DNA of 64,000 nt from Rhizophagus irregularis. Its lineage: Eukaryota. Below are positions 3,491 through 63,782 of the stretch, one piece after another. Position 1 is the stretch's first letter. Every line of letters starts with the position of its first letter. Below the pieces are notes generated by a model. That model ran no database searches, was not told where the DNA came from, and saw nothing but the letters and a program-made list of their open reading frames with translations. The stretch lies in contig NC_089435.1 in the NCBI RefSeq assembly GCF_026210795.1, forward strand, positions 4,898,001 to 4,962,000, in the 5' to 3' direction. The position numbers and the translations under genes were made by a program.

Positions 3491-5679
3491 TTAATCTTGT
3501 TTTGTATTGTTTCTTGTGATGTTAAGATTATCCTCTCTAACAGCTTGAAGAAGTTCATTTTTTAAATTTTGGCCAATTTCATTTTTAACAGCTTGAAGGA
3601 ATTCATTTTTCAAATTTTGGCCAATTTCATTTTTAACAGCTTGAAGAATTTCATCTTTAAAAATTTGTGATGATGCCCTATTATTATTATAACTATTAGT
3701 ATTAACTACTGCAGGAGCTGGAATTGTTGGTTCGTGATCATTATTATTTTCATTTTGGAGCGTTTGCATAATTTCTTGCCCATGATGATCATTGGCTGGA
3801 ATTATTATTGGTTCATGGTTGGTTGTATTTTCATTTTCGGGTGTTAGAATAATTTCTTGCTTACGATAGTTATTCTTATTAATTATTGGAGGTGGAATTA
3901 TTATTGGTTCATAATTGGACGTACTTTCATTTCTAGGTATTTGATCAATTTGAATAGTTTCTTGCTAATTATTATTGATATCTTGTTCATAATTATGAAT
4001 ATCTCTTACGATAGGAAGCTCCTTTTCTTCTTGACTGTAATCATTATTTTTATCATTTTTATGAATAGTTTTTAGTTTATTTTTATTCCATTTATATATC
4101 AAGAAACTTCCAACTGTTAATAAAATACCACTCAATAAAGATCCCACAACTATACCAGCTATATTACCTGAATTATTTGGTGGTGATGAAGAAGATAGTG
4201 AAGGCGAAGGTGGTGGCGAAGGTAGTGGTAATGGTGGTAGTGTTGATGGTGGTGGTGATGGCATTTTTGGATCAAATATTGTTGTCCATATATATTCTTC
4301 ATTATTACTAATATCAAGCAATAATATATCACCGACTTTCAACTGTTTTATCATAACTATATCCTATCAATAAATCAAAATTTGTTAAAAATAATTATCA
4401 ATCAAATTAAATAGAAGAGTATCATAAAATATTATATTTACCAAATGATATGACCATATATTTTCCAATTACATTTGCTTTATGAAAAACCCTAGGCTTC
4501 AGGATTTTTCCAGAAATTTTTGGAATGTACCAATTATAATTAGCTAAATCTAATACGTAAAGTGTGGTATCTAAATATCCAGGATTTATAAAAAATCCTC
4601 CATAAATTATAATGGAAATTTACTATTACTGACTAATATTAATCTTTTAATAATAATCATAGTGTTCTCATTTGATTACATACCAAGAATAGCAGAAAAA
4701 CCAGCTCTATTAGAAGGAATTTTTCCTGATGTTGCCTAAATTCAATAATTGAAATTAATTCACAACTGAATATAAAAAATTTCATCATAATAATTTGCAT
4801 TACTTACTTTTGTATCCCAATTGTCATTAATTATATCATACTATATATAAATCTACAAATAATTTATCATAATTAATTAGATTTATTTTTTTTAAAAAAA
4901 ATTTATATATTTACAAAATATACCTCACTTAATATTAAACCAGTTCCTTTATCAATATTCAAAGTATTAGCATTATAAGTAATAGCATAATCCTAAACAA
5001 TAAGTGTTCATTAATAAAATAACAAGTATATTTAAATAAATATAATATGTCGCTTACCTATGTAAATAATCTTATTGTTAGGTAATAAATGGTACCATAA
5101 TTAATTCTTGGATTTGGAGCGTTAATTATACTACCTTTACTCCAATTAAGATTTATTGTATCTAAAATAAGCATTTCATTTACATAATCAGTATTTGTTT
5201 CCCCACTCCATAAATACATCCTTCCGTCTTTATTAATAATGCTTGTTAAATCCCATTTTCTAAATGTAACTCCAGCTATTTTTGGAATACTCCATATAAT
5301 ACTTCGTGAATCAAATGTATAAACCAATGCCATCGTTTGATCAACTGTAAATCCTCCGAATAAAAATAGAGTATCATTATTTGGACCACCTTTAACTGCC
5401 GTTGCAGAAGAATGAGGTGGAACCATATTAATATTTGATATCTTGCCATGATAATTCTTAATTATTAAATGGTGCAGAAACATCAAGATAAAAAAATTCT
5501 TTTATTTGGTTATTATTTAAATCATATCCACCCAAAATATATAATTTATTATCAATGAGTGTAGCAGTATGGCGATGATATACAGTTGGCTTAAAAGGCG
5601 TCATTTGACAATTTACTTTAACTACTAATGCTTGAAGTAGTATCCATAATATGAAATAAACTGAAGGATTTCTTAACAT
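3491..5679 (-). pseudogene. Kelch-repeat type I membrane protein, copy 1 (pseudogene)
   Basis: Colinear with intact copies 2 and 4. It has a TAA at 5458, a 2-bp deletion at ~5440, a deletion removing the exon-5 acceptor (~4612) and an in-frame TAG at 3965. Confidence 0.9.
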
Positions 5680-20695: not shown

Positions 20696-22980
20696 TTAAT
20701 CTTGGTTTGTATTGTTTCTTGTGATGTTAAGATTATCCTCTCTAACAGCTTGAAGAAGTTCATTTTTCAAATTTTGGCCAATTTCATTTTTAACAGCTTG
20801 AAGGAGTTCATTTTTCAAATTTTGACCAATTTCATTTTTAACAGCTTGAAGAATTTCATCTTTAAAAATTTGTGATGATATCCTATTATTATTAGGTGTT
20901 GAAATTACTTCTTGCCCATACTTATAATTATTAGTATTAACTACTGCTGGAGCTGGAATTGTTGGTTCGTGATCGCTAGTATTTTCATTTTGGAGCGTTT
21001 GCATAATTTCTTGCCCATGATGATCATTAACTGGAATTATTATTGGTTCATGGTTGGTTGTATTTTCATTTTCGGGTGTTAGAATAATTTCTTGCTTATG
21101 ATAGTTATTCTTATTAATTATTGGAGGTGGAATTATTATTGGTTCATAATTGGACGTACTTTCATTTCTAGGTATTTGATCAATTTGAATAGTTTCTTGC
21201 TCATTATTATTGATATCTTGTTCATAATTATGAATATCCCTTATGATAGGAAGCTCCTTTTCTTCTTGACTGTAATCATTATTATTATCATTTTCATGAA
21301 TAGTTTTTTGTTTATTTTTATTCCATTTATATATCAAGAAACTTCCAACTGATAATAAAATACCACTCAATAAAGATCCCACAACTATACCAGCTGTATT
21401 GCCTGAATTATTTGGTGGTAATGAAGAAGGTGAAGGCGAAGGTGAAGGCGAAGGTGGTGGTAATGGTGGCAATGTTGATGGTGGTGGTGATGGTGGTAGT
21501 GTTGGTGGTGGTGGCATTTTTGGATCAAATATTGTTGTCCATATATATTCTTCATTATTACTAATATCAAGCAATAATATATCACTTTCAACTGTTTTAT
21601 CATAACCATATCCTATTAATAAATCAAAATTTTTTTTGTTTTGTTAAAATAATTATCAATCAAATTAAATAGAAGAGTATCATAAAATATTATTTTTACC
21701 AAATGATACAACCATATATTTTCCAATTACATTTGCTTTATGAAGAGCTCTAGGATTTGGGATTTTTCCAGAAATTTTTGGAATGTACCAATTATAATTA
21801 GCTAAATCTAATACGTAAAGTGTAGTATCTAAATATCCAGTATTTGTAAAAATTCCTCCAAAAATTATGATTCTTTTACCATCTAAACCTGTTGAAAATA
21901 TAATGAAAATTTACCATTACTGACTAATATTAATCTTCTAATAATAATCATAGCATACTCATTTTGATTACATACCAAGAATAGCGGAAAAATCAGCTCT
22001 ATTAGAAGGGATTTTTCCTGATGTTACCTAAATTTAATAATTGAAATTAATTCACAACTGAATATAAAAATTTTCATCATAATAATTTGTATAACTTACT
22101 TTTGTATCCCAATTGTCATTAATCAAATCATATATATAAATCTACAAATAATTTATCATAATTAATTAGATTTATTTTTTAAAAAAAATTTATATATTTA
22201 CAAAATATACCTCGCTTAATGTTAAAGTAGTTCCTTTGGCAATATTCAAAGTATTAGTATCAAAAGTAGTAGCAACATCATTATCACCACCTAAACAATA
22301 AGCGTTCATTAATAAAATAACAAATATATTTAAATAAATATAATATGTCGCTTACCTATGTAAATAATCTTATTGTTAGGTAATAAAACGGCACCATAAT
22401 TCATTCTTGGAGTTGGGGCGTTAATTATACTTCCTTTACTCCAATTAAGATTTATTGTATCTAAAATAAGCATTTCATTTACATAATCAGTATTTGTTTC
22501 CCCACTCCATAAATACATCCTTCCGTCATTATTAATAATGCCTGTTAAACTCCGTTTTCTAATTGTATTAACTCCAGCTATTTTTGGAACACTCCATACA
22601 ATTCTTTGTGAATCAAATGTATAAACCAATGCCATTGTTTGATCTGTACTAGCTCCTCCGTATAAAAATAGAGTATCATTATTTGGACCACCTTTAACTG
22701 ACGCAGCAGAAGAATGAGGTGGAACCATATTAATATTTGATAAATCTTGCCATGATAATTCTTGAGTATTAAATGGTACAGAAACATCAAGGTAAAAAAA
22801 TTCATTTATGCGTTTTATGTTTAAATCATATCCACCCAAAATATATAATTTATTATCAATGAGTGTAGCAGTATGACGATTATATACACTTGGCTTAAAG
22901 GGCGTCATTTGACAATTTACTCTAACAAATATTTGTATTAGTATCCATAATATGAAGTAAACTGAAGAATTTCTTGACAT
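20696..22980 (-). CDS. Kelch-repeat (galactose-oxidase-like beta-propeller) type I membrane protein, copy 2; 6 exons, 634 aa
   Basis: GT-AG exons 22980-22356, 22290-22211, 22141-22100, 22027-21976, 21888-21700, 21612-20696 join in frame (1905 nt). Signal peptide, Kelch GG...W motifs, Pro/Ser linker, TM (AGIVVGSLLSGILLSVGSFLIY), basic stop-transfer, cytosolic tail. Confidence 0.92.
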
Positions 22981-25900
22981 GATCGTAATTTACTTAATAA
23001 TTGAAATGAATAATATTTAAGGAAAAAAATATTTATTCACTTTTTTAAAAAAGAATTTTACGGTATTTAAATGTTTAACGTTACACTTAGCATTATAACA
23101 TGGTTGCATAGAACGGCGGAATCATAATATTCAAGTATTTATTTTTTCACAATAATATAATTAATGCACACCCACATACTCTATGCAAATTTATTAGCAC
23201 AATTTCCACATGTATTGCATAAAATCATAAGATAAAAATAGCAAATTCAATAATGTTAAAACGTTACCCAAATAATTAAATTAATTTTTTGGCTTGAAAA
23301 TACGCTGTGTAAAATAAGATGATCCAATAAGAAATAAATTGTTACGATGTTTGTGATCAACAAGAATGATCAAACCTAAATAAATATGCAGTGTATTATC
23401 GTGTTAAATTGCATTTGAAAAATTCAAAAGTACTGTAGATGACTTAAATGCTGATTGAAAAGTTAACTATCTCAAAAAAAAAAATTTCTTGAAACTATGA
23501 ATTTTCCTTGCCGATGAAAGTCTTGCGATTACATAACCTTCATGAATGTTTGAATTTATAAATAAAAAAACAAATAGTATAACGATTCACTTTAGGCATA
23601 AAATTGGTTAAATATATAATGTGGACCGCAGGGTCGATTATCCGTAGAAGTTGCATAAAAAACAGAATGGTTAAAATAATAGATTCTATTTTAAATTTCT
23701 ATATCAAGTAATATAATGAATTGGCTTCTGCATGTATTTATAATTTATTAAATATACAGTATATTATTGGTTGGGGAATAGTTATGTCGGTCACAGGACC
23801 AGATATTTGGGCAACGTAATAGTAAATATTTTTTGGATATGACGCAGCATATTTACAGAATTACAGTAGAGTCAGGCTACACTTCAATATAAATGTAATA
23901 AAAACAGTATTTATAGTAAAATATATATATACATTTCACGGTCCTATTTATAGTCTACATACAGTTATGTAATATACTTTATATACATACAGTAATTAAT
24001 AAAAACCTAATTTAGATAATTGAACCGAAGATCTATTCTTTTACTAGACTTTAAATAAACTGCCCAAAAAATAAAGTTTTTTAAGACTAAATAAAAATAA
24101 TAATGAAAATATATATAAAAGTTTCGGCTCTTTGTTTCAGATAATACAAAGATATTTGTTATCAATAAAGCTAAATTCGAAAATGGGATTAGGATTTACA
24201 CAAAGAAACTTTTTGAACTCATTTACAATAACTCTCTTTTGGGAAGTAATGATGACGAACAATTTACTTTTTTTTCTTGGCCATTTTTAGAGAATTATAA
24301 ATTGGCTTTATGTACCTGCTGCTTAAAATGAAAATCTCATCAAGTAACACTAAACTTGATCTTGATTTAGTACTCTTCTTTCTTTTTGGTTTTTATTCCT
24401 TGTTCGCATTGTAGAAACAATAGAAACAATAGAAAAATGTTGAATGTTGTGTATATATGTACATAAAAGGAAGTTCTGTTTAATCGGCTGTTAATTTAAC
24501 CGAAGGGTACAAATTTAAATGTCTCAGGTACAGATAGATCAATCATTTTTTTTTCCGACTTAATAATTATTAATGATACGTTATAGTTTCATTATAATTT
24601 AAGGAAAGGATGTATGATAAGTTATGTCAAATGACCGTCATAATATTAACTTGATTTGCTAAATAGACCAAGAAAAATCTTGTTACGTCACAACTTTTTT
24701 GTCAATTTTTTTTTTTTATACCAACCAAATAACAGAGTAATTAAACCAAAAAATGATACTGTATACACTAGGGCCAGCAAAATCTTATGTGACACAAAAT
24801 TAATATAATATATATTATCAGTTATCCTCATAAGTTCATGCAGATTTTACTTAATTGTTATTTAGGTCGGTTATCTCATATTACTATGTATTAGCATAAT
24901 AATAAAATTATTGGATAGTAACGGAAGTTTATTATAAAAATTGCATGAACGGTCCCGTCAAACCGATAATATATAATAATTGAATATTAAATCTTACCTG
25001 GGGGAGTCTAGTTTCTACTTTTATAAATTAGCTAAAGGATGCACAATATATTAATTTAGCTCATTAATATAAATTTTATGTTATCAAAAAATTAAAAAGC
25101 ACCAGGAATTCTAACGTTAATTGCAAAAGTTCTTAGATTAGTATGTTGCAGTGATTCTAATAAAAAATGTGTAGGTCCATCGGTACGCACGCCTAACAAC
25201 AGTACAATTGTTTAAAATTCGTTTATTTCATATGATGATCAACAAATTTCGCAAGAATTACTCATTATTTACATAGGATCATGTTATTCATGTATAGAAA
25301 AACTTTATAGTTATCCAATAGTATTTTATATTATTATTTATACGCGTAATAAAATAATATTTATATACATTATCAATACTATAAATTAATTAATGTGGAA
25401 AATTAAAAAAGTGCAGTTATTAAATGAAAAATTACCTCCTTAAAGGTGATAAAATTATACTTTGTTAGACTATTTAGACTATTGATAAACTATTTATACA
25501 TGATCATAGAGGCATTATATAATATAAAGCTCATTAATTCTTTCTGGTGCAATTGGTGCAATAGGAATAATTGTTCTGCCATTTTTTGTTTTATAACAAA
25601 ATAGTTTCGCCAATTAAGTATTATAAACTTTTGATATATTACTTAAAAAAACCAATTCCTTCCAAAAAAAAAACCAATTCGAAACCATAAACGGAGTGAT
25701 AAGCCACTAAATTATCATGTGCGTCATGTGCGTCATTGTGCATCCGATATTATCACTTATTTTTTGATCGACATATTGATCAAAATTCGTATTAAAATTC
25801 GTATTTATCACTAAATTTGATTAGTGAGACAAATCGCACACACGTACGCCACAAACAATACGCCCCCCTAAATTGGGACGGGCTTGTAATCCAAATTAAT

Positions 25901-36565: not shown

Positions 36566-39094
36566 TTAATCTTGGTTTGTATTGTTTCTTGTGATGTTAA
36601 GATTATTTAAATTTTGGCCAATTTCATTTTTAACAGCTTGAAGGAGTTCATTTTTTAAATTTTGACCAATTTCATTTTTAACAGCTTGAAGAATTTCATC
36701 TTTTAAAATTTGTGATGATATCCTATTATTATTAGGTGTTGAAATTACTTCTTGCCCATAATTATAATTATTAGTATTAACAATTGCAGGAGCTGGAATT
36801 GTTGGTTCGTGATCACTAGTATTTTCATTTTGAAGCGTTTGCATAATTTCTTGCCCATGATGATCATTGACTGGAATTATTATTAGTTCATGGTTGGTTG
36901 TATTTTCATTTTCGGGTGTTAGAATAATTTCTTGCTTATGATAGTTATTCTTATTAATTATTGGAGGTGGAATTATTATTGGATAATTGGACGTACTTTC
37001 ATTTCTAGGTATTTGATCAATTTGAATAGTTTCTTGCTCATTATTATTGATATCTTGTTCATAATTATGAATATCCCTTACGATAGGAAACTCCTTTTCT
37101 TCTTGACTGTAATCATTATTATTATCGTTTTCATGAATAGTTTTTTGTTTATTTTTTTTCCATTTATATATCAAGAAACTTCCAACTGATAAAAAAACAC
37201 CACCCAATGAAGATCCCACAACTACACAAGCTATATTGTCTGAAATATTATGTGGGTCTGACATATTATGTGGTGATGAAGAAGAATGTGAAGGCGAAGG
37301 TGAATGCGAAGGTGGTAGCGAAGGTGGTGGTAATGGTGGCAGTGTTGATGGTGGTGTTGGTGGTGGTGGCGATGGCATTTTTGGATCAAATTCTGTTGTC
37401 CATATATATTCATCATTATTACTAATATCAAGCAATAATATATCACTTTCATCTGTTTTATCATAACCAATTCCTATTAAATCAAATTGTTTTTGTTAAA
37501 ACTAGTTAACCTGATTAAGTAATAATTTAAGGAATATTATATTTACCAAATGATACAACCATATATTTTCCAATTACATTTGCTTGATGAAGAGCTCTAG
37601 GCTTTGGGATTTTTCCAGAAATTTTTGGAATATACCAATTATTATTAGCTAAATCTAATACGTAAAGTGTAGTATCTAAATATCCAGGATTTATAAAATA
37701 TCCTCCAAAAATTATAATTCTTTTACCATCTAAACCTGTTAAAATATAATGAAAATTTACTATTACTAATATTATTAATCTTTTAAAATAATCATAGCGT
37801 TCTTATTTGATTACATACCAAGAACAGCGGAAAAACCAGCTCTATTAGAAGGGATATTTCCTGATGTTACCTAAATTTAATAATTGAAATTAATTATTCA
37901 AACTGAATATAAAAATTTTCATCATAATAATTTGCATAACTTACCCTGTAAAAAAAAAATGTCCGGAAATTGTAGCTAAAAACATCCGGAAAATGTCCGT
38001 GTGTCCGGAAAACGTCCAGAAAATTGCAATATTCCGGACACTTTCTGGACGCTGGGTCTGAACCCTCCTAGACATTTTCTGGACATTTTCTGGAAAATGG
38101 AAATTTTCCAACGTCCGGAATATTGCAATATTCCGGACATATTCCAGACAAATAAACATTTTCCGGACGTTTTCAGCTACAATTTCCGGACATTCTTTTT
38201 TTATAGGGTTACTTTTGTATCCCAATTGTCATTAATCATATCATATATATAAATCTACAAATAATTTATCATAATTAATAGATTTATCTTTAAAAAAAAA
38301 TTTTATATTTACAAAATATACCTCACTTAATGTTAAAGTAGTTCCTTTAACAATATTCAAAGTATTAGAATTAAAAGAAGTAGTATCATAGTCATTACCG
38401 CCTAAACAATAAGTGTTCATTAATAAAATAACAGATATATTTAAATAAATATAATATGTCGCTTACCCATGTAAATAATTTTATTGTTAGGTAATAAAAT
38501 GGCCCCATAATCAGTTCTTGGAGTTGGAGCATTAATTATACTTCCTTTACTCCAATTAAGATTTATTGTATCTAAAATAAGCATGTCATTTACAAAATCA
38601 GTATTTGTGCACCCACCCCATAAATACATCCTTCCGTCGTTATTAATAATGCCTGTTAAACCCCGTTTTCTAATTGTATTAACTCCAGCTATTTTTGGAA
38701 TACTCCATACAATACTTTGTGAATCAAATGTATAAACCAATGACATTGTTTGATCTGTACTAGTTCCTCCGTATAAAAACAGAGTATAATTATTTGGACC
38801 ACCTTTAACTGATGCTGCAAAACCATGCGGCGGAACCATATTAATATTTGATAAATCTTGCCATGATAATTCTTGAGTATTAAATAGTACAGAAACGTCA
38901 AGATAAAAAAATTCTTTTATTACATTTCTGTTTAAATCCAACCCACCCAAAATATACAATTTATTATCAATAAGTGTAGCAGTATGACGACAATATACAT
39001 TTGGCTTAAAGGGTGTCATTTGACAATTTACTTCAACTAATACTTGTATTAGTATCCATAATATAATGAAGTAAACTGAAGAATTTCTTGACAT
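36566..39094 (-). CDS. Kelch-repeat type I membrane protein, copy 3; 6 exons, 632 aa if intron 3 still splices
   Basis: Exons 39094-38467, 38401-38322, 38254-38213, 37870-37819, 37735-37547, 37473-36566 join in frame. The intron-3 donor is changed from GTAAGT to GTAACC by a MITE. Confidence 0.8.
37944..38208. mobile_element. CACTA/CMC-like MITE (265 bp; CCCTG/CCCTA ends, 3-bp TSD TTA)
   Basis: ~50-bp TIRs and many tccgga subrepeats. The empty site ataacttacttttgtat is in copies 2 and 4. A near-identical copy lies at 58514. Confidence 0.95.
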
Positions 39095-39803
39095 GATCGT
39101 AATTTATTTAATACTAGTAGAAATGAATAATATTTAAAGAAAAAAATATTAATTCACTTTTTAAAAAAAGAATTTTACGGTATTTAAATTTTTAACGTTA
39201 CACTTATTAGCATTAAAAACATGGATGCATAGAACGGCGGGATCATAATATTCAAGTATTTTATTTTTCATTAATGCACACTCACATACCCTATGAAATT
39301 TATTAGCACAATCCACATGTATTGCATAAAATCATAAGAAAATAATAACAAATCCAATAATGTTAAAACGTTACCCAAATAATTATTAATTCTTTGACTT
39401 GAAAATACGCTGTGTAAAAAAAGATGTTCCAATAAAAAATAAATTGTTACAACAAGAATGATTTTAATTCTTTAAATTATACCTAAATAAATGTGCAGTG
39501 TATTATCGTGTTAAATTGCATTTGAAAAATTCAAAAATAGATGACTTAAATGCTGATTGAAAGTTAAGAATTTATCTTTCAAAAGAAAAAAAAAATTTTC
39601 TTGAAACTATGATGAATATTGATAAAAAAACAAATAGTATAATAATATATACATATATATCTTTCACTTTTTGCATAAAATTGGTTAAATATATAGATCC
39701 TTAACGGTAACAAGAGAATGGTTAAAATAATAGTTTCTATATTAAATTTCTATATCAAGTAATATTATAATGAATTGGATTCCGCATGTATTTATAATTA
39801 CAC

Positions 39804-42524: not shown

Positions 42525-44814
42525 TTAATCTTGGTTTGTATTGTTCCTTGTGATGTTAAGATTATTTAAATTTTGGCCAATTTCATTTTTAACAGCTTGA
42601 AGGAGTTCATTTTTCAAGTTTTGACCAATTTCATTTTTAACAGCTTGAAGAATATCATCTTTAAAAATTTGTGATGATATCCTATTATTATTAGGTGTTG
42701 AAATTACTTCTTGCTCATAATTATAATTATTAGTATTAACTATTGCAGGAGCTGGAATTGTTGGTTCGTGATCACTAGTATTTTCATTTTGGAACGTTTG
42801 CATAATTTCTTGCCCATGATGATCATTGAGTGGAATTATTATTGGTTCATGGTTGGTTGTATTTTCATTTTCGGGTGCTAGTATAATTTCTTGCCCATGA
42901 TGATCATTGACTGGAATTATTATTGGTTCATGGTTGGTTGTATTTTCATTTTCGGGTGTTAGAATTATTTCTTGCTTATGATAGTTATTCTTATTAATTA
43001 TTGGAGGTGGAATTATTATTGGTTTATAATTAGACGTACTTTCATTTCTAGGTATTTGATCAATTTGAATAGTTTCTTGCTCATTATTATTGATATCTTT
43101 TTCATTATTATAAATATCCCTTATGATAGGAAGCTCCTTTTCCTCTTGACTGTAATCATCATTTTCATGAATAATTTTTTGTTTATTTTTATTCCATTTA
43201 TATATCAAGAAACTTCCAACTGATAACAAAATACCACTCAATAAAGATCCCACAACTATACCAGCTATATTACCTGAATTATTTGGTGGTGGTGAAGAAG
43301 AAAGTGAAGGCGAAGATGAAGGCGAAGGTGGTGGCGAAGGTGGTGGTAATGGTGGTAGTGTTGATGGTGGTGGCGATGGCATTTTTGGATCAAATATTGT
43401 TGTCCATATATATTCTTCATTATTACTAATATCAAGCAATAATATATCACTTTCAACTGTTTTATCATAACCTTCTCCTGTTAAATCAAATTGTTTTTGT
43501 TAAAACTAGTTATCTGCTTAAGTAATAATTTAAGGAATATTATATTTACCAAATGATACAACCATATATTTTCCAATTACATTTGTTTGATGAAAAGCTC
43601 TAGGCTTTGGGATTTTTCCAGAAATTTTTGGAATGTACCAATTATAATTAGCTAAATCTAATACATAAAGTGAAGTATCTAAATATCCGGGATTTATAAA
43701 ATATCCTCCAAAAATTATGATTCTTTTACCATCTAAACCTGTTAAAAATATATAATGAAAATTTACCATTACTAATATTAAACTTAAATAATAATCATAG
43801 CGTTCTTGTTTGATTACATACCAAGAACAGCGGAAAAACCACCTCTATTAGAAGGGATTTTTCCTAATGCTACCTAAATTTAATAATTGAAATTAATTCA
43901 CAAAAATTTTCATCATAATAATATGCATAACTTACTTTTGTATCCCAATTGTCATTAATCATATCATATACATAAATCTACAAATAATTTATAATTAATT
44001 AGATTATTTTTTTAGAAAAAAAAAATTTATATATTTAGTAAATATACCTCACTTAATGTTAAAGCAGCTCCTTTAACAATATTCAAAGTATTAGTATCAA
44101 AACTAGTAGTAGCATCATTACCGCCTAAACAAAAAGTGTTCATTAATAAAATAACAAATATATTTAAATAAATATAATATGTCGCTTACCCATATAAATA
44201 ATTTTATTGTTAGGTAATAAAATGGCCCCATAATCAGTTCTTGGAGTTGGAGCATTAATTATACTTCCTTTACTCCAATTAAGATTTATTGTATCTAAAA
44301 TAAGCATGTCATTTACAAAATCAGTATTTGTGCACCCACCCCATAAATACATCCTTCCGTCGTTATTAATAATGCCTGTTAAACTCCGTTTTCTAATTGT
44401 ATTAACTCCAGCTATCTTTGGAATACTCCATACAATACTTTGTGAATCAAATGTATAAACCAATGCCATTGTTTGATCAGCTGTTAATCCTCCGTATAAA
44501 AATAGAGTATCATTATTTACACCACCTTTAACTGACATTGCAGAAAAATGAAGTGGAACCATATTAATATTTGATAAATCTTGCCATGATAATTCTTGAG
44601 TACTAAATGGTACAGAAACATCAAGATAAAAAAATTCTTTTAGTCCATTGTTGTTTAAACCCAGTCCACCCAAAATATACAATTTATTATCAATAAGTGT
44701 AGCAGTATGACGACTATATACACTTGGTTTAAAGGGCGTCATTTGACAATTTACTTTAACTAATACTTGTAATAGTATCCATAATATGAAGTAAACTGAA
44801 GAATTTCCTGACAT
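42525..44814 (-). CDS. Kelch-repeat type I membrane protein, copy 4; 6 exons, 645 aa
   Basis: Exons 44814-44190, 44124-44048, 43977-43936, 43873-43822, 43738-43550, 43477-42525 join in frame (1938 nt). The tail has an extra tandem duplication (QEIIL.PENENTTNHEPIIIP.NDHHG). Confidence 0.92.
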
Positions 44815-45385
44815 GATCGTAATTTATATAATAGTAAAAATGAATAATATTTTAATATTTAAAGAAAAAAATATTATTCACTTTTTAAAAAAAGAATTTT
44901 ACGGTATTTAAATTTTTAGTGTTACACTTAGCATTAAAAACATGGTTGCATAGAATGGTGGGATCATAATATTCAAGTATTTATTTTTCACAATAATATA
45001 ATTAATGCACACCCACATACCCTATGCAAATTTATTAGCACAATTTCCACATGTATTGCATTGCATAAAACCATAAGATAATAATAACAAATCTAATAAT
45101 GTTAAAACGTTACCCAAATAATTAAATTAATTTTTTGGCTTGAAAATATGTTGTGTAAAAAAAGATGATCCAATAAGAAATAAATTGTTACAACAAGAAT
45201 GAACCTAAATAAATATGCAGTGTATTATCGTGTTAAATTGCATTTGAAAAATTCAAAAATAAATGACTTAAATGCTGATTGAAAAGTCAAGAATTTATCT
45301 TTCAAAAGAATGAATTTTCCTTGCTGATGAAAGTCTTGCGGGTCATGAATATTGATAAATAAACAAAATAGTATAATAATATATA

Positions 45386-50656: not shown

Positions 50657-53222
50657 AGTTATTCACTTATTAAATAATTATACTTAGTTCCTACCGTTTA
50701 TTCGAAATCTCGTAGCTTAGTAATTACATTTCGAGATCGATATCGTTCCTTCGCATTTGAAATCTTATTCAAATTTCGTAAATCCATGTCCTATAAAAAA
50801 CACTCATAGTTAATTCAAACGGCAAACGTACAACCATCCGAATACAAATTTACCTATTACTTACCCTTCCACATTTCAAAAAAAAAAAATATTTTTAAGA
50901 TCTTTTATTTCAAGATTAAACCTAACAAACATAAATTATTATGTTTTTTTTTTAATTATAAGTCTTATATATCAATTAATAATTGTTTTTGAAATAGAGG
51001 AAAAAAGTAAGAAATCAAAGAAAATTTTTTGCAAATTAAATTTTTCAGTGAGGTTGATTAAAATTATTTACTGTTAAATCAAATAATCTGAATTAATAAA
51101 AATACCGTATATCACGGGCAATAGTACCTGGTGTCGGTTGACGCTGTGTACGAAATTTTTTATTTATAAATGAAGGGTTTTAAAAACTTGTAGTATATTA
51201 AAAAAATATTTAAATGTGTCGCCTGGGTAAAATTAGATTGTTTAAATAGTATAATCAAAAGCAATGGAAGAAAAAAAGTGGGGGATACTATTATTTTTCA
51301 ATTGAATTTATACAATTTACGATTGAATTTAATAGAATACTTTTAAGGAAATATTCATGTGATGAAAATCGTTGTGTTACATATAGGAGGGGTTAAATCC
51401 CCCTATTATTATTGTTGTCGATAAAAAAGGGAAAATTTGATTTTTTTTTATTATGAATGATGAAAACAGTTCACACAATGAAAAATGAAATGGACCTGGA
51501 CGACTTTATTTGAAAAGTATTTATTATTATTAGTGCAAAATTTTTTTGGTATCATATATTTTACATTAATATTTTATTCTAATATATAATATATAAAAAT
51601 GAAGTTTTAAATGAAGTTTTAAATACAAAAATATTTACAAATTTCCAGTTTTAATAAATTTTTTATTATTTAAATAAATTTATTTATTACATTAAAAATG
51701 TGTAATCATAAAATCTCATATTGTTTAGACTCAAACTCATGGAAAAAACTTTGAAATCAACAAGTTTTTTCAAGTAAATTTTACAATATCAGATATATAA
51801 TTAATTTTACTTAAATCAAAAATAAGTATAACATTTTCATAGTATTTATAATTTATAAAGTTTACTTATAGAATAATTGCTTTATGCGATACAGGTGACA
51901 ATGGTGAATATGTGACAAGTCAATCAACACCTGACGCCTGAGCCCTGAGGCACAGCATGTTAAAAGGAATGAAACATAGGAATGATTTATGAGGTCGAGG
52001 TTCGTCATATCTAGAAAAGCTAAAAAGGCTTGAATTATTTTATTTAAATGATAAATATCACGAGATAAATAAGCTAAAATTGCATTTATTAATACAAAAG
52101 ATTATAAAAAATTAAACAATTTAAGCAACGCACGATTTAAAAATTCAATGAATTCAAAGAAAAATATTAGAATATTAAATGGAATGTGTTTTTTTTCGCG
52201 CCCGCGATATGCCTTTTTTGGTCGATCATTTTGATCACATGACTTCGTTTAGATTTCCTATTTTTAAAAAATCCTGGCGTGAGACCTTATGCACTTACTA
52301 TGTACTATAAGAAACCTTACACTATGCATATTTAGCCTTTCACGGATCCATTCACGGAAAATGTAAATAATCCGTTAAATTCCGTGATATAAAGTTATTA
52401 ATTCCGGAAATATGAGCCTTTTACGGAAAAAAAAGATGGAATAAAAAAACGGATTGACTTTTTTTACAGGGAACGCAGGTGCGATAAAAAACAAAACCCA
52501 TATTAAATTACATAACAGATAAGTAAAAATTCAACAATATCACGATTAAAAAATTAAGAATTGATCATTAATTTAATAATACAAACGAATAAAAAATACA
52601 CAATTAAATAATATAATTTACGATTTCATTCAAGTTCATCAAATAATTGATAAATATATTTTAATAATACGATAATACAAGCTGTTTTTACAATACATTA
52701 AATAATCACAAATTCACCATAATTGAATTTTAATCATCATCGCCTAATAACCTATTTATCGTAAAAAATAATGACGATGAAAATGGGTATTCTTGCAAAC
52801 AACAAATACGTAAATCACTACCCCCATGTAAATTATTACATAAATTCAAAAATAATCAAGATAATCCAAACAACCTTTACACAGTAGCATCTTTATTGGC
52901 TACTACTCATCTAGTACTTTTAGTAATAAGAAAACAAAGAAATATATAACACGTAAAAATATAGAAAACACGGAACGTGACATTTATATTTTATTTAATT
53001 TTATTACATAATAAAATTTTAGCATTTATTACATAATATTTTAGGGTGAATATAACATAAGATTTATATATTATGTGGGATGGGGGTTAAGACTTATAAC
53101 AAATGGATGTTACGTAATAAATGTCGCCGCACTTACAATAAGTTGCTTAATTTCGTATAATCGACCAATTTCGTAGTTTATTTTATATATTGTCCCCGAG
53201 TCAGATTTCAAATTTGGGAAAG

Positions 53223-55250
53223 TTAGTTAATCTGGTTTATTATTACCCGATTGCGGCCACTTTCTTTGGCCTTTCGACAAGCCTCTTCAGCATGATTCAA
53301 TAAGTCAGTAGAAGTTTCTACCGATGAGTTTATTTCGAAAACACCAATGCTAAGCGTAATAGAAAATTTTTCCTCATTGAAAGTAATTGAGTGTTTTTCA
53401 ACAGAATGTCAAATTTTTTCAGCAATTTCAGAGGCCGATTTTGCATCAGTAGTATTATTAAGAAGAATAGTAAATTCATCTCCACCATATCGTGCAAAAA
53501 TATCCTTAGGACCAATATGTTCATTTTTAATTAACTCGGACAATTCTTTTAAAATGTGGACTCCAGATTCATGGCTATGTTGTTTATTGATTTCTCCGAA
53601 TTTATCCACATCAAAAAACAAAAAACTCAAACTTTGTTTATTTTCTCTAGCATTTTCGAATTCATTTTCCAAGCTTTTCCGCAAATAATCCGTGTTGTAA
53701 ACGGGTAAAAGTTTATCCATACGGTTCTCATATTTTCCAGCGGGAAGGTATTGGAAAACTGCTCTTCCTAATTTAATTAAATCGTCTTTTTCTAAAGTTT
53801 GAGAAGCTCGAAATTCGAGTTTTTTATCATTTACATAAATCCCAGATTTAGATCCCAAATCGAAAATTTCGACTTTTCCTTGAAAACTTTTAATTTTTGC
53901 ATGCTGTTTACCAAGTTCTTGATCTTTTATAATAATATGATTTGATTCAGTTCTTCCAACAAATGTTTCATTTTGGGTAAGGAAGAGATATGGGGTTTCT
54001 TCATATAAACCTTTATTAATAAATAAACAAGCTTCTTTCTTTGACGGAGCATTATTTCTCTTAAGGTAAACATTTGGAATATAATCAGAATCTTGATATA
54101 AATGGTTAATATCAATGTCTCCAAGGCTTCGAGCGATCTCTTCAATTGATGGTCGTTTTTTAGGATCGTTGCTCCATGCACTTTCATAAAGCTCTATGTA
54201 ATCTATTGGAGTTGAATTGACTGGAATTTCCTTATTTTTCTCATGAGGGATTTTGCCACTAGATATTTGCCATAGTATCAATCCAAGGCTGTAAATATCT
54301 GAAGATTTGTCGTATTTATAATCAGCGTTAGAACACATCGGATCCACGTAAATATTATCCCCAGGATCAGATATTTCTTTAAGATCGTCAAGTTCGGAAA
54401 GATGATCAAGAGACACGGATTGATTAAATCCTATAATCACAAATGTGCCATCATGATCTAATATGTATTTTGGACACTATTCATGACATTTATGTATAAA
54501 TTTTAGTAAATAATGCAATAAAAATTAAGAATATGAATTGTTTAGCAGGGTCTAAACTAGTTTGGCTGTTAATAATAAATCGATTATTTTTTGCCAATTT
54601 TAATACTCACCAAAACACGGTGTACAATATTTGCTTTATGGATATATTCTACTAAGCCATTGGAAATATCTGCAGCTATTTTTATTTTAAGAGTCCAATC
54701 CATTTTTTCAATATTATTTTTATTTTCTAAATAATCCTTAAGATTTTCACCATAGCATTGCTGCTGAAACACCATAGAGTAATACTTCTTAGAAGGTTCT
54801 GAAATAATGATGTGATAAAGTGAATTATAGATCGGATTAAATGCGAGAATTTAGATGTTTAAAATAGAAATCATATATGTAACCTTTTGTAACGCCATAA
54901 AATCTCATTACGTTTTTATTTTGGTCAACGTCTTTTAAATTCATTACATACCTATTTGTTTTCATTTAAAAATTAGGTGGAAAATTGAAATATAGAACTT
55001 ATGTACATTAACAATCGATGATTTAGGGCTCGTTATAATGTTAATCACTTCTCTGTGAAGCTTTTTATAATATTTATCTTCGTCACTCTAATCTAGTATA
55101 TATTTGATAATGACTCTGCCTTGAGATTCTATATAGGCTTTTTTGATCTCATGTGGCCCTACGTTTGGAATCGCTTCTACGCATTCAAAATTGTCGTATT
55201 TGAACTCCTTTAAAGCACGATTACTGATAAAGATTTGTAATAATATCCAT
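53223..55250 (-). pseudogene. Spliced degenerate protein kinase-FHA-GGDEF (diguanylate-cyclase-like) fusion, disrupted in this copy
   Basis: Exons ~55250-55049, 54951-54884, 54798-54611, 54476-53223. Kinase motifs MRFYGVTK, WTLKIKIAADISNGL, HRVL, YVDP, SDIYSLGLILWQI, KRPS. FHA motifs VGR...QHAKI...DLGSKSGIYVN. GGDEF motifs FFDVDKF, ARYGGDEF and, beyond a TGA at 53409, TLSIGV...AKESGRNRV. Lesions: TAG at 55088, TGA at 53409, frameshifts near 55243 and 54950. Confidence 0.88.
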
Positions 55251-55628: not shown

Positions 55629-55734
55629 AGAATGAGCATCAGAATGAACATCAGAATGAACATCAGAATGGCATCAGAATATGGACATCAGAATGGAGAA
55701 TGAGCATAGAACGGGCATCAGAATGAGCATCAGA
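55629..55734. repeat. 12-bp tandem repeat (agaatgagcatc), ~9 degenerate units
   Basis: Read directly from the sequence. Confidence 0.85.
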
Positions 55735-56230
55735 TCTATTGTTCTAATCAATAATCAATAATTAGAATACAATAAAAAAATAATATTCTATTAAGTTGTC
55801 AATAAAATATTATATTTGTATTCAATAGAATTAATGGAATAAGATCTATTGTTCCATTCATGAAACTTTAAAACCGGTTTTTATAAATGCTTTTAGATTA
55901 TCTAAATTATCGTTTATACATGTTTTTATTTTGGTATTACATTTTTCTGTGAAACACTTCATATATTGATTTGTGAGTTAATATCATGTCTTAAACTCAA
56001 TTTCATTGATTTCGTTAAACGACCTATATATAGGTTAGTTGTGAAAACAAATATGCATGTACCATGAGGTAATTTCATTGTCGCATTTAGTTTTCGTAAT
56101 GATCAAGCGGTCACACAAATAATTTATGCATGTTAAATTTCAATGATTTTCTGTGATACATATTATCTAGTTTACACTAGGCGACAAATAAAGCCTATCA
56201 CTGAAGGCTTGTTCAAAAATTCTTACATAA

Positions 56231-58513: not shown

Positions 58514-58777
58514 CCCTATAAAAAAAGAATGTCCGGAAATTGTAGCTGAAAACGTCCGGAAATGTTTATTTGTCTGGAATATGTCCGGAATATTGCAATA
58601 TTCCGGACGTTGGAAAATTTCCATTTTCCGGAAAATGTCCAGAAAATGTCTAGGAGGGTTCAGACCCAGCGTCCAGAAAGTGTCCAGAATATTGCAATTT
58701 TCTGGACGTTTTCCGGACACACGGACATTTTCCGGATGTTTTTAGCTACAATTTCCGGACATTTTTTTTTTACAGGG
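58514..58777. mobile_element. Second copy of the 37944 MITE (264 bp), inverted, TSD CAA
   Basis: CAA[ccctataaaaaaagaatgtccgg...ccggacattttttttttacaggg]CAA; nearly identical to the reverse complement of 37944-38208. Confidence 0.95.
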
Positions 58778-59230: not shown

Positions 59231-60714
59231 TCATTTATTAACAATATCTACAAATTAAAAAAAATGAATGAACGTCAATATAAAGAATAATGAAAAAAAG
59301 CAAAAAACACGTTATATAGAAAATGAGAAAATAAGAAAGGTATATATAAATTTCTTACCAGGAAGTTCACGGCAATCTTGATCAACTTCTGAAAAGGATG
59401 AATGTTAATATAGAGCACGAATAAATAAGATGATGGCTTCAAAATTTACCTGCGGATGGCTCTTGCGATTTAGGAGTTGGATTATACATTCCTGCACGAT
59501 ATCTCCTGTCTTCTTTGCTTTTTTCATCATCAGCTTCCTCAAATTGTTTCGCTTCCTCATCACTGCGGCTCTCCTCAGTAGGGAACCAACCTAGCACGGA
59601 CTGCCATTTCATTATTTTCTCTTTAATGTCTAGAGCAGTTGGACGATTTTGTGGATCACTATCCCAACAATTTCTTATCAAAGTTGCATAGCATTCGGGT
59701 ATTTCTTTGGGAATTTCAGGTCTTAGGCCATTATTCTTGATCCGACATACAAGTTCATTATCATAGGAGAGATCTGCATAAGGTTTTTCCCCAGTTCCCA
59801 CTTCCCATAAGATCATTGCAAAGCTATAAATATCAGATGCCTCAGTGTATGGTTTTTTATTTAATACTTCAGGAGCGATGTAAGGTATGACACCAATAAT
59901 TTTTTCCGTTTTTTCTTCACTGGCTTGTTTAGATAACCCCAAGTCGGTGATACGTGAGGGATACAGAAGATCTTTGAACTGCAAAATGTTTCCAGTATGG
60001 AGATCACGATGTGTCATACCAGTTACATGAATTATTTCCAAGCCCGCGACTATGTTTCGAAGAATATCAAGTTTTCGACGCCAATATAATTTGGCTTTGT
60101 TATTTTGAAGGTATTCTCGTAAATCACCATTTTCCGCGTATTCCATTACTATTGCATAATTTTTCGTATCCGGATTTTGAGTGATGCCAAGATAGCTAAT
60201 AAGATGACGACTAGCACATTGAAAATATGCTTCAAGCTGCAAATTGTTTAATAAGTTAATTAAAAATGTGTGGCATACTAATACAATTAATGACATTATT
60301 AACGTGAAATACATATAATGATAATACCTCAGCGATAAAATCATCACTAATATTGTCCGAATTGTTCATAGTTTTTAAAACAACTTTCATTTTTCCTTGT
60401 CTATGCCATTGATTCATTTTATGATTCCATCGTACAACATAACCATTTATCCAAGTTGCCAGAGATATTGTTCCATAACCACCTTTAGCAAAATCTTTTT
60501 CGTTTATTTCAAGATCTTCATAGGGAATCCATTCAAGAAAAAGAATAGTGTTGATAAGGGATGGTCTAACATATTTAACTAGTTCGTCAATTTTTTTGTT
60601 TCCACTTGACCGATTTTCATATTTTTTTTGATTTTGATATTGCTCTTTAATACATGGTTGACAAGGGAGCTTATCTATTTTACACTGATCACATTCTGAA
60701 CAGTTGTGAGACAT
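59231..60714 (-). CDS. Tyrosine-kinase-like (TKL-type) protein kinase with Cys-rich N-terminus; 4 exons
   Basis: Exons 60714-60328, 60236-59450, 59388-59359, 59247-59231 (last two tentative). Motifs SGNKKIDEL, EWIPY, AKGGYG, VVLK, MEYAENG, HRDLHTGNIL, ITDLG, YIAPE, SDIYSF, CWDSDPQNRP; catalytic residues intact. Confidence 0.92.
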
Positions 60715-61445
60715 TGGCCTAAAGTAAAAAATCAAGATATGTAAAACAAGAACTTCCTTTGACTCCTTTCTTTCTTGTCGTTGTGAAAAATTTTGTAATA
60801 TGTATATTTTTAAAAGTATATGAGACAAGAGGAAAAACAAAGAATTTATTTTCACAAGTTATCCAATTTATAAGATTCATTAACATTCAAGATAACACAA
60901 TTTATTAATATTATTTAAAATATATTTTTTCATTTGGAAGAAATTATTGAATATGTTACAAATAGAATAGGAACAATGAAATTCTTTTCTTTCAAATTTT
61001 CAAATTTGGAAATTTTTATGGTTTGCCCAGAAGGCCAGAACAGATTTTCCATTTCAAATCATAACAAGGTGTGACTTGTGAGCCGTGAACGCCAAGGATT
61101 TCTATAAATGACTAAAATAATCACCTTATCCTAAAAAAAAAATTGTTTATTTATACAATAAAACTTGTTTTGTCTTAATTTTTTTGTTTAAACACACGGG
61201 CTGTGCATTGTGCAGTGATGTACATTGGAAGCTTCTAATGGAATTGGAAGGTTCGGAAGCTTCCAATGAGCATGTGTAACAAGTTTATTTTTTATAATGT
61301 ATGTCGAAATATCATTGATTATCATTTGAATGAAATCAAATAAGTTATAAATGAACTTGTCAGAATTTTTTCTTCTAATTCAATTATATTTTAAATTATT
61401 TTTTCAATTATTTTTTAAAAAAAAATAAATTTCACAAATAAAATC

Positions 61446-63782
61446 ATGAAAGAAACATTTTCAAGTTTTAACGTTGATGTATTAGAAAGTGTTAAAGATC
61501 ATGGAATAAAAGTTATACAAACAACTGCAGATATTATTCAAAATTTAATTCCACATTTTGATATAGCAATTAATATAGCATCATGTATATTAGAGATTTA
61601 TGAAAAAGCGAAAACGAATAAAAAAATTTGTAGAGTATTCGCTGATAGAGTGGAATTAGCTTTAACATCAATAAATTATTTAAAAAGGCATATGGATAAA
61701 AATGTTGAAAAATTTCGAGAAAAAAGTTATTTTAAAAATTTTATGCATTTTATTGAAGTATTAGACAAGATTAAAAATTTTGTTGAAGAAATTTCTGAAA
61801 TTAAAGGTTTTAAAAAATATCTCGTCGCTAATGTAATTAATCAACAACTTAATGAAATTAGGGATGATTTTGATCATTGGTATAAATCATTACAACTTGT
61901 TATTACTATTGGTGATGTCATCAGTCGTGAAATTGAAAATGAAGAGATAAAAAGTGATTTAAGTCAATTAAAAGGTCTTTATGAAGATATTAAACAAAAT
62001 TTTAATATAACTGATCAAAAATTATCTATTATTACTGCAAAAATTGAAATGTTAGAGAAAAATTCTTCAATTTTGGATAAATCCAAACCACCTGAAATTG
62101 GTCCGGAACATCTTACTGTACCAGAAGAACCCATCATAGAACGTAATAGTGTTATATTAAGAAAATATAAAAATTTTGATGTCGCTTGTAAGCCAACTAA
62201 ATATTCACTTAACGATACTAGTCCGGATTCAAAAAAAGCTGGTGCAACTCTAACAATTTGGAATGAATTAAATGAATGTCCTTATATAATTAAATTTTTT
62301 GGAATTTCAAATTTGGATATATACACTGAAAATGTTATGGTTTTAGAATGGGCTGAATTTGGTGATTTAAAAAGTCTTTATGAGAGTAAGAATCTTAATT
62401 GGAAACTTAAATTAAGTATGGCGAGAGATATTTTTCGTGGTCTTTGTTTCTTGAATTATATTCGTAAGTTCTGTTTATTTAGTATTAGTTATTTTTTATT
62501 AATATTTACGTCGTAAACTAAATTTATATCAACCACAGGTGTTTTACATCATGATGTTAGATGTGAAAATATTTTGGTAAGTTCTTTGATTCATCAGTTA
62601 TTAATTAAATATTGACTATATGCTGATTTTATTAATCTGTATAATTTAAAGGTAGCTGAAGGATTTAAATGTAAAATAACCAATTTTACTTTAAGCCGTA
62701 AAACAAAATATGTAACTACCAAAGTACATGATGATGAGAGTTCGAAACAAATGATGCGTTGGATGGCTCCTGAGAAACTTAAATCTTATCAAAAATCAAA
62801 TCAAAATACGAAAATAGAACCATATACTTATGCGTGTGAAATGTTTAGGTATGTAATCAGGTTGGCTAAAGATAAATTATATAAATAAGAAACAACTTTT
62901 TAAATTCTTTTTTTCTTTTATAGTTTTGGAATGCTTCTTTGGGAGCTTTCTTTTAATAGAGTACCATATAAAGACATGGAATATGATGAAATAATTGAAC
63001 ATGTTATGAGTGGAAAACGAGAAACATTAGACTTTGTAAATTGTCCACGTGATATAATTGATGGTTTCACCGAAATTATTACATTGGCATGGCAACATGA
63101 AAATCGCAAGCGTCCGTCAACCCAAAAGGTCTCAAAAATTCTTGAATCATTATATAAATCTTACGAAAATAATTTATTAAATTTAAATGAAGAAACAAAT
63201 TATGAATCTCAAAAATGTTCTTCTACTATCTCTACCACTACCAGTAATAATACTATTGAATTTGTTAATGAGTATGTCCTTGATCTTTTACCATTATCAA
63301 AAGGTATTGAACATCATAATTTAAAAGCTAAGAAAACGAAATCAGAACAAGATTACAAAATTTGTTGGGAATGTTTCAATGCACACGCAAATCTTGGTAA
63401 TAAAACGGCCATGTATTGGAAAGGACTTTATTTATGGAAGGGTTTTGTTGAAGAGAATCAAATTGAAGCAAAAAGATTATTTAAAATTGCAGCTGACTCT
63501 GGAATAGCTGAAGCTCAATTAGAATATGCTTTTGCTTATGATAGTGAGAATCTTGAAAATCCTGATTTACCTTTTAATGAAAAAGAATGTTGGAAATATT
63601 TAAAAATGGCCGCTGAAAATAGTAATCCTACAGCATTATACCACGTAGGTATTACTTATTATAATGGAAATGTGGGAGTGCAACAAGATAAAGAAAGAGG
63701 TATTGAATATCTTAAACTTTCCGCTTTACAAGTTAATCCTAAAGCAATTGAAACATTAAATAAATACGGAGTTAATCTTTAA
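61446..63782 (+). CDS. MLKL-like N-terminal helical bundle + degenerate kinase + Sel1-like repeats; 4 exons, 703 aa
   Basis: Exons 61446-62463, 62539-62576, 62652-62848, 62924-63782 join in frame (2112 nt). The N-terminus (IYEKAKTNKKICRVFADRVE...VLDKIKNFVEEI) resembles the MLKL N-terminal domain. The kinase lacks a Gly loop and has HHDVRCEN, NFT in place of DFG, and WMAPE. C-terminal Sel1 repeats (AKRLFKIAADSG, YLKMAAENSNPTA, YLKLSALQ). Confidence 0.9.

Follow-up and report, generated by a model that had tools for sequence, protein, structure and literature searches.

The closest described system to the locus analyzed here is the diguanylate cyclase DgcB of Bdellovibrio bacteriovorus (Bd0742, PDB 6HBZ), in which, according to excerpts of PMC6733907, a phosphorylated tail threonine docks in the cleft of the FHA domain (R61, S75, R76, S95, T96, N97) and activates the cyclase; the isolated GGDEF domain of DgcB is inactive, tail-FHA docking being needed. 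Among eukaryotes, Dictyostelium DgcA is presented in excerpts of PMC10559540 and PMC4686194 as a bacterial-type diguanylate cyclase acquired by horizontal transfer, and a 2023 paper names Dictyostelium as the only eukaryote known to make c-di-GMP (PMC10399225, in part). Roles of individual residues in the GGDEF domain are taken here from parts of PMC7288161 and PMC12943098, the former of which defines Hypr (cGAMP-making) GGDEF domains by a Ser in place of D344.

We followed up a gene on the minus strand of a 64,000-nucleotide stretch of Rhizophagus irregularis DNA (contig NC_089435.1, positions 4,898,001 to 4,962,000; hereafter the window), which a sequence-only reading had described as a degenerate kinase gene fused to a bacterial-type FHA-GGDEF module (Table 1). 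Pfam returned a weak kinase match for this gene, with both FHA and GGDEF matched in the last exon, and likeness to intact relatives extends beyond the ATG of exon 1 to 55295. The sequence-only reading had counted three GT-AG introns, and their number and their place in the kinase part are borne out, as are the GT-AG borders of introns 2 and 3, but intron 1 ends in AT; similarly, the last exon, which carries the kinase C-lobe, FHA and GGDEF, is intronless as described, but its frame is broken by a TGA. The GGDEF signature is present at the codons where it had been placed. In DgcB numbering, the FHA domain of this copy keeps R61 and H78, while R76 has become Lys, S75 Gly and N97 Ser; in PleD numbering, its GGDEF domain carries K332G/D336K, D344V and R359G.

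Table 1. Features of the fusion gene and of its surroundings, in window positions
Feature	Position	Strand	Remarks
Kinase-FHA-GGDEF gene	55250-53223	minus	3 introns, all in kinase part
Exon 1, kinase N-lobe	55049..55250	minus	ATG at 55250; carries frameshift and TAG
Intron 1, 101 nt (length removed from related transcripts)	54948..55048	minus	GT donor, AT end here
Exon 2, kinase alphaC-beta4 region	54884..54947	minus	from spliced contig
Intron 2, 85 nt, GT-AG	54799..54883	minus	spliced out in run X6 contig
Exon 3, kinase hinge to catalytic loop	54611..54798	minus	HRV for HRD
Intron 3, 134 nt, GT-AG	54477..54610	minus	spliced out in run X6 contig
Exon 4, last exon, intronless	54476-53223	minus	kinase C-lobe, FHA and GGDEF
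Exon 4, pseudokinase C-lobe	54123..54476	minus	without catalytic Asn; IGF for DFG
Exon 4, DgcB-like FHA domain	53745..54035	minus	Pfam E 6.9e-13
Exon 4, GGDEF domain	53247..53720	minus	Pfam E 5.5e-33
GGDEF motif codons	53486-53472	minus	read GGDEF
Premature TGA, on codon of I-site Arg390	53411-53409	minus	Arg in intact relatives and run X9
Natural stop codon	53223..53225	minus	
Short repeat just downstream of fusion gene	53087-53125		hundreds of RNA reads, running into other sequence
12-nt tandem array	55629-55734		adjoins the ~150-nt direct repeat
Direct repeat, ~150 nt, upstream of fusion gene	55735-55882 and 56728-56869		copies 990 nt apart
264-nt element, MITE-like layout	58514-58777		49-nt inverted ends (92% complementary), inner inverted repeats
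TKL-like kinase gene	59439-60858	minus	HRD intact, DLG motif; comparator for the degenerate kinase
Gene with MLKL_N domain, kinase, Sel1 repeats	61419-63782	plus	spliced reads in run X21
Four similar Kelch-repeat genes	3491-5501, 20696-22989, 36566-39103, 42525-44823	minus	proline-rich stalk, likely single membrane segment (Pfam on one copy)

Four lesions mark the window copy. Exon 1 is hit twice, by a frameshift of 1 nt near 55229 and by a TAG in frame (55090-55088); at the intron 1 junction (55048-54948), the nearest AG lies 4 nt upstream of the AT end, shifts exon 2 out of its frame and leads to a stop after 8 codons, suggesting that either the acceptor was lost or 4 nt were inserted; and the TGA past the GGDEF motif costs this domain its final third, contrary to the full-length fold claimed for this copy from its letters. 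With R359G and a stop at R390, the I-site is broken, and a complete GGDEF fold in one frame is absent here, although P0004 (model pLDDT 88), P0400 and other intact relatives have one. The window copy thus cannot encode a whole cyclase, and we consider it with high confidence to be a pseudogene, or null allele. The TGA is real rather than an assembly error because protein records from several separate assemblies of Rhizophagus irregularis DAOM 197198 (XP_025188732.2, EXX57724.1, POG81866.1 and GBC15611.2) stop at the same residue; one DAOM 197198 record with this stop sits on a 5.3-Mb contig.

Transcript data came from related alleles. In run X6, one fully spliced contig of 2141 nt (depth 45.6), spanning 55483-53150, joins the kinase to FHA-GGDEF with all three introns out (134, 85 and 101 nt), which upholds the proposed linkage of the GGDEF exon to the intron-bearing kinase exons and places all three junctions in a single contig; its allele is ~97% identical to the window. 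The coding indels listed for this contig are of 3, 3, 6 and 3 nt, plus one of 1 nt that abolishes the frameshift, and we infer an open frame because this indel set is common to the X6 contig and run X9 (the X6 substitutions being partly listed). Contigs of poly(A) RNA from run X9, 95-99% alike, likewise have intron 1 spliced, lack the frameshift and show sense codons at both stop sites; among the 26 codons listed, the window differs from the X9 allele by 17 non-synonymous and 9 synonymous changes. Raw RNA runs X19-X22 gave no reads over the coding region, a result in which an absent and a silent gene are indistinguishable, as reads of the neighbouring genes, covered and spliced in X21 and X22, lie mostly at 90-95% identity. 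The module's GC3 (0.22, vs. 0.47-0.61 in five bacterial relatives) is host-like, and the module is therefore not contamination. Chimeric assembly or contamination is ruled out by the 5.3-Mb contig record, the several assemblies, the spliced contig and the host-like GC3, and the fusion of kinase to FHA-GGDEF is almost certainly real.

Three homology searches and one profile search placed the module, among the matches listed, in R. irregularis, in Rhizophagus-like records and in seven species of Gigasporaceae (Gigaspora rosea, G. margarita, Cetraspora pellucida, Dentiscutata erythropus, D. heterogama, Racocetra persica and R. fulgida), with no other fungi among the best 120-150 matches per search. 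Of 20 matches that we looked up, 17 carry the module, whole or in part (16 from Gigasporaceae, 1 from R. irregularis), the remaining three being two kinase-only Diversispora proteins and one multi-GGDEF protein. Intact relatives in related genomes, as anticipated, include P0400, a full-length member of the Rhizophagus type, alongside the spliced transcripts of X6 and X9. Residues 1-480 of P0400 form a long N-terminal region before the kinase that has no Pfam match and does not lie upstream in the window. Fungal modules from five genera are 53-78% identical to that of the window, and some members bear the automatic NCBI name "GGDEF domain-containing protein". Judging from its records, the gene is often broken in R. 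irregularis, with at least 4 further truncation points beside that of the window when alleles and paralogs are pooled; in some R. irregularis records (P0387, P0375) the GGDEF part is annotated as a separate short ORF behind a truncated kinase-FHA gene. The Rhizophagus modules P0001, P0003, P0004 and P0006 group with the Dentiscutata copy P0011 (72% identity). Rhizophagus copies nest with the Dentiscutata copy at SH-aLRT 92-94, but a single Gigasporaceae clade is not rejected (p-AU 0.072); fungus-to-fungus transfer into Rhizophagus may have occurred. A metagenome scan for fungal loci returned no fungal DNA and 6 weak bacterial FHA matches among 146 candidates.

The source of the module is bacterial, as had been proposed, but its nearest relatives are not the myxobacterial proteins then named: the one myxobacterial relative measured is 32% identical, whereas DgcB-like proteins of Oligoflexia and related Bdellovibrionota, the closest bacterial proteins among the matches listed, reach 39-42%. 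Bdellovibrionota also account for 7 of the 8 organism-named bacterial matches listed in one search. The best solved match is Bdellovibrio DgcB (PDB 6HBZ; sequence E 6e-36, fold E 3.6e-29), and the FHA domain lies directly before GGDEF and is homologous to DgcB across both domains by sequence, Pfam and fold. Against 6HBZ, the predicted model of P0004 (pLDDT 88, pTM 0.78) scores Z 28.4 over 263 aligned residues, with an rmsd of 12.4 across two domains. We built a tree of 88 modules (20 fungal, 20 bacterial and 48 of 80 genome loci, the loci picked by likeness to an Oligoflexia query), in which the 20 fungal rows all group together (SH-aLRT 100), with an Oligoflexia clade as their sister (93) and both nested in Bdellovibrionota (94), values to be read in light of a quick search with SH-aLRT, a long fungal stem, Oligoflexia-centred sampling and five fungal rows of odd composition. 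Myxobacteria fall outside the Bdellovibrionota grouping. A Bdellovibrionota bacterium is therefore named here as the likely donor, a good but not overwhelming case read from this tree and these identities. Together with splicing and GC3, the tree sustains the idea that a bacterial FHA-GGDEF module was gained by horizontal transfer and came to lie in the last exon of a kinase gene that was resident and had introns (three in the kinase part, none in the module), and the simplest reading would be one transfer followed by fusion to that gene.

To follow the fate of the DgcB switch, we counted residues in 59 fungal-type and 105 bacterial rows, skipping gapped rows at each site and including near-duplicates from different assemblies. 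Structural FHA residues are kept at 93-98% in fungal copies, as are R61 (48/49) and a basic residue (R/K) at 76 (47/51), yet S75 occurs in 0/51 and N97 in 0/49 fungal rows, vs. 104/104 bacterial rows, so that the consensus phosphothreonine pocket (R61, S75, R76, S95/T96, N97) is not complete in fungal FHA domains. The N-terminal tail with its phospho-acceptor Thr, present in the 10 bacterial rows compared, is replaced in fungi by a kinase-FHA linker with no conserved Thr. The kinase itself is degenerate, as described from the window: Rhizophagus copies read HRV, lack the catalytic Asn and read IGF, no module-bearing row compared has DFG, and HCD..N and DFS survive in a small number of Gigasporaceae copies (P0010, P0134). 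With S75 and N97 gone, a kinase standing where the tail was and no catalytic motifs in the Rhizophagus kinase, the DgcB phospho-switch is, by its residues, dismantled in the fungal family, and the label "phosphorylation-linked" given to this protein is not supported. The acidic kinase-FHA linker might conceivably mimic the DgcB phospho-tail: the P0004 model has a strand at residues 122-125, but its structural alignment to 6HBZ begins at residue 134.

The GGDEF domain presents a different pattern. Nine of the 38 fungal GGDEF domains that are complete, all nine from Gigasporaceae, retain every one of thirteen canonical catalytic and substrate-binding residues (D327, F331, N335, D344, R366, GG[DE]EF, K442, R446 and K332), vs. 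101/104 bacterial domains; P0404, P0405, P0403 and P0134 are canonical members; at least one site is missing in 29/38 fungal domains vs. 3/104 bacterial ones, and K332 is the only one missing in 7/38, including intact Rhizophagus-type copies. Taken singly in fungal rows, D327 is conserved in 45/49, N335 in 51/52, R366 in 54/54, E370 in 52/55, K442 in 49/51, R446 in 40/50 and K332 in 24/52, while the DxLT activation turn has its Thr in 3/40. Position 344 is D in 42, N in 11 and V in 1 of 54 fungal rows; with no Ser or Thr at this position in these rows, the Hypr mark is absent. Asn at this guanine-reading position (P0006, P0015, P0017, P0258, P0402 and others) could alter nucleotide choice. The I-site triad R359/D362/R390 is whole in 35/51 fungal rows and broken in 16/51, its residues being kept singly in 44/55, 48/55 and 50/53, respectively. 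All 19 copies with Gly332 have Lys336, one helical turn on, vs. 0/24 of those with K332, and when the tree is computed with those columns removed, the G332/K336 state switches 5 times on it. The Rhizophagus-type P0400 is one of the G332/K336 members. The residues flanking the pair are common to these copies, which suggests one origin spread by recombination rather than repeated compensation; because of these shared flanks, we put forward compensation by K336 only as conjecture.

Many family members extend beyond the GGDEF domain. Among 40 module-bearing proteins scanned, which were chosen for length or novelty rather than at random, 28 have a further C-terminal domain (three of these matches being weak): URGCP/VLIG very-large GTPase in 9, fungal MACPF-like in 9, LamG in 5, Sel1 in 2, NACHT/STAND in 2 and another GTPase in 1. 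Such a tail is present on 8 of the 9 canonical cyclase domains, and the fusions, which are gene models rather than cDNAs, recur across species. In other settings, domains of these kinds act in immunity or cell death. R. clarus has a kinase-GTPase-MACPF protein that lacks GGDEF (P0143), so the partner tails may be a product of general shuffling of domains in this group of fungi.

On balance, we lean modestly toward the reading that intact members are horizontally acquired, rewired diguanylate cyclases, predicted to make c-di-GMP. A DgcB-type FHA-GGDEF module would have been acquired once from a Bdellovibrionota bacterium and joined to the end of a fungal kinase domain; dimerising or sensing input could then fall to the pseudokinase and the altered FHA in place of the DgcB phospho-switch, so that two GGDEF domains joined by the pseudokinase-FHA part would form c-di-GMP from GTP, with I-site feedback limiting output, Lys336 perhaps standing in for the lost K332 in Rhizophagus-type copies, and a possible role in sensing bacteria or stress. 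Cyclase activity is a fairly probable prediction for at least the canonical copies and a tentative one, tilted slightly toward doubt, for Rhizophagus-type copies. It is a prediction only. Against it stand the inactivity of the DgcB GGDEF domain alone, whose tail-FHA switch is lost in fungi, the canonical sites missing from most complete fungal domains, the empty coverage in X19-X22, and the differing truncation points of R. irregularis records, which fit a dispensable gene. If the switch had survived, the kinase would phosphorylate a threonine that the FHA domain binds, turning the cyclase on; the retained R61 and basic residue at 76, and the catalytic-loop Asp and DFS of P0010 and P0134, would suit this, but the universal loss of S75 and N97, the missing Thr tail and the HRV and IGF of Rhizophagus kinases make it highly improbable.

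Two further readings dispense with catalysis. The GGDEF domain might be a receptor: bacterial c-di-GMP would occupy its I-site (or GTP its A-site), and the signal would pass on via the pseudokinase or the GTPase, MACPF or NACHT parts, making the protein a fungal sensor of bacteria; the I-site residues are individually well kept, in contrast to the eroding transition-state Lys and DxLT Thr, and GTPase, MACPF, LamG, Sel1 or NACHT/STAND tails are frequent in the selected proteins. In pure GGDEF receptors, however, the GG[DE]EF motif and the ligands of the metal are usually gone, and fungal copies keep both, nine of them being fully canonical; moreover, the I-site triad is broken in nearly a third of copies, and the tails may be general shuffling, given P0143. 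We regard a receptor as the main rival, though rather unlikely. Still less likely is that the module is a passenger, inserted once into a fast-evolving kinase family and duplicated, shuffled and decaying without nucleotide function. The four lesions of the window copy, the other truncations in R. irregularis, the many degenerate paralogs, the patchy distribution and the changes between window and X9 would agree with such decay, but catalytic and I-site residues are kept across the five genera at the module identities given above, intact spliced transcripts exist, and the FHA Ser and Asn are gone from all copies while structural FHA residues persist; it is because this loss is so selective that a passenger appears improbable.

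Beyond the predicted cyclase itself, arbuscular mycorrhizal (AM) fungi might run their own cyclic-dinucleotide signalling, in which a cyclase captured from predatory Bdellovibrionota would form c-di-GMP within the hypha and gate the fused immune-type effectors (MACPF pore domain, very-large GTPase or NACHT) against bacteria. We consider this unlikely; if true, it would be a fungal counterpart of CBASS or cGAS-STING for dealing with bacteria. Full-text literature searches gave no description of fungal GGDEF proteins, though supplements or subscription papers may list the family. GGDEF terms are absent from the text and supplements of the AM- and early-fungal HGT papers PMC11291939 (whose xenolog table probably lies outside this scope) and PMC5982333; in the portions covered, PMC3768803 has a single match, a non-significant BLAST row, and PMC7732545 makes no mention of GGDEF. 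With a conserved, spliced and expanded GGDEF family in the colonisers of most plant roots, whether fungi make or read c-di-GMP becomes directly testable on named proteins, and the natural null alleles, such as that of the window, and intact alleles of closely related strains are useful since these fungi are hard to manipulate genetically. The family also shows clearly how a bacterial phospho-switch, here one from an unusual donor group, can be taken apart and rewired once transferred. Its value lies in the family, the window copy alone being a pseudogene.

Comparison with known systems places the family nearest to DgcB (PMC6733907), with which it shares the order of FHA and GGDEF, the layout of the linker and, in most copies, GG[DE]EF, RxxD and the third I-site Arg. 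Unlike DgcB, which has a phosphothreonine tail and FHA S75 and N97, the fungal family has a kinase in place of the tail and has lost both residues; it also differs in reading G/K for K332/D336 in 19 copies, in the introns of its kinase part and in the extra C-terminal domains of many copies. Dictyostelium DgcA resembles it as a bacterial-type cyclase gained by horizontal transfer (PMC10559540, PMC4686194 and PMC10399225, each in part), but DgcA is encoded by one gene, has demonstrated activity and acts in development, whereas the fungal family is multi-domain and multi-copy, its cyclase predicted from sequence. The two origins appear separate, to judge by the nesting of the fungal clade among FHA-GGDEF proteins in a tree built without DgcA. 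The Bdellovibrio CdgA-type degenerate GGDEF receptors, named in the excerpted PMC6733907, bind c-di-GMP via the GGDEF fold and so exemplify the rival receptor mechanism; they are degenerate, however, while the catalytic motif and the ligands of the metal persist in most fungal copies. Finally, the TKL-like kinase expansions of Glomeromycota (kinase-Sel1, MLKL_N-kinase and kinase-GTPase-MACPF) represent the same pool as the family's kinase, introns and C-terminal partners, the two top kinase-only matches being Diversispora epigaea proteins, one with MLKL_N; these expansions lack FHA-GGDEF, whereas in the fusion family the kinase is degenerate in most copies.
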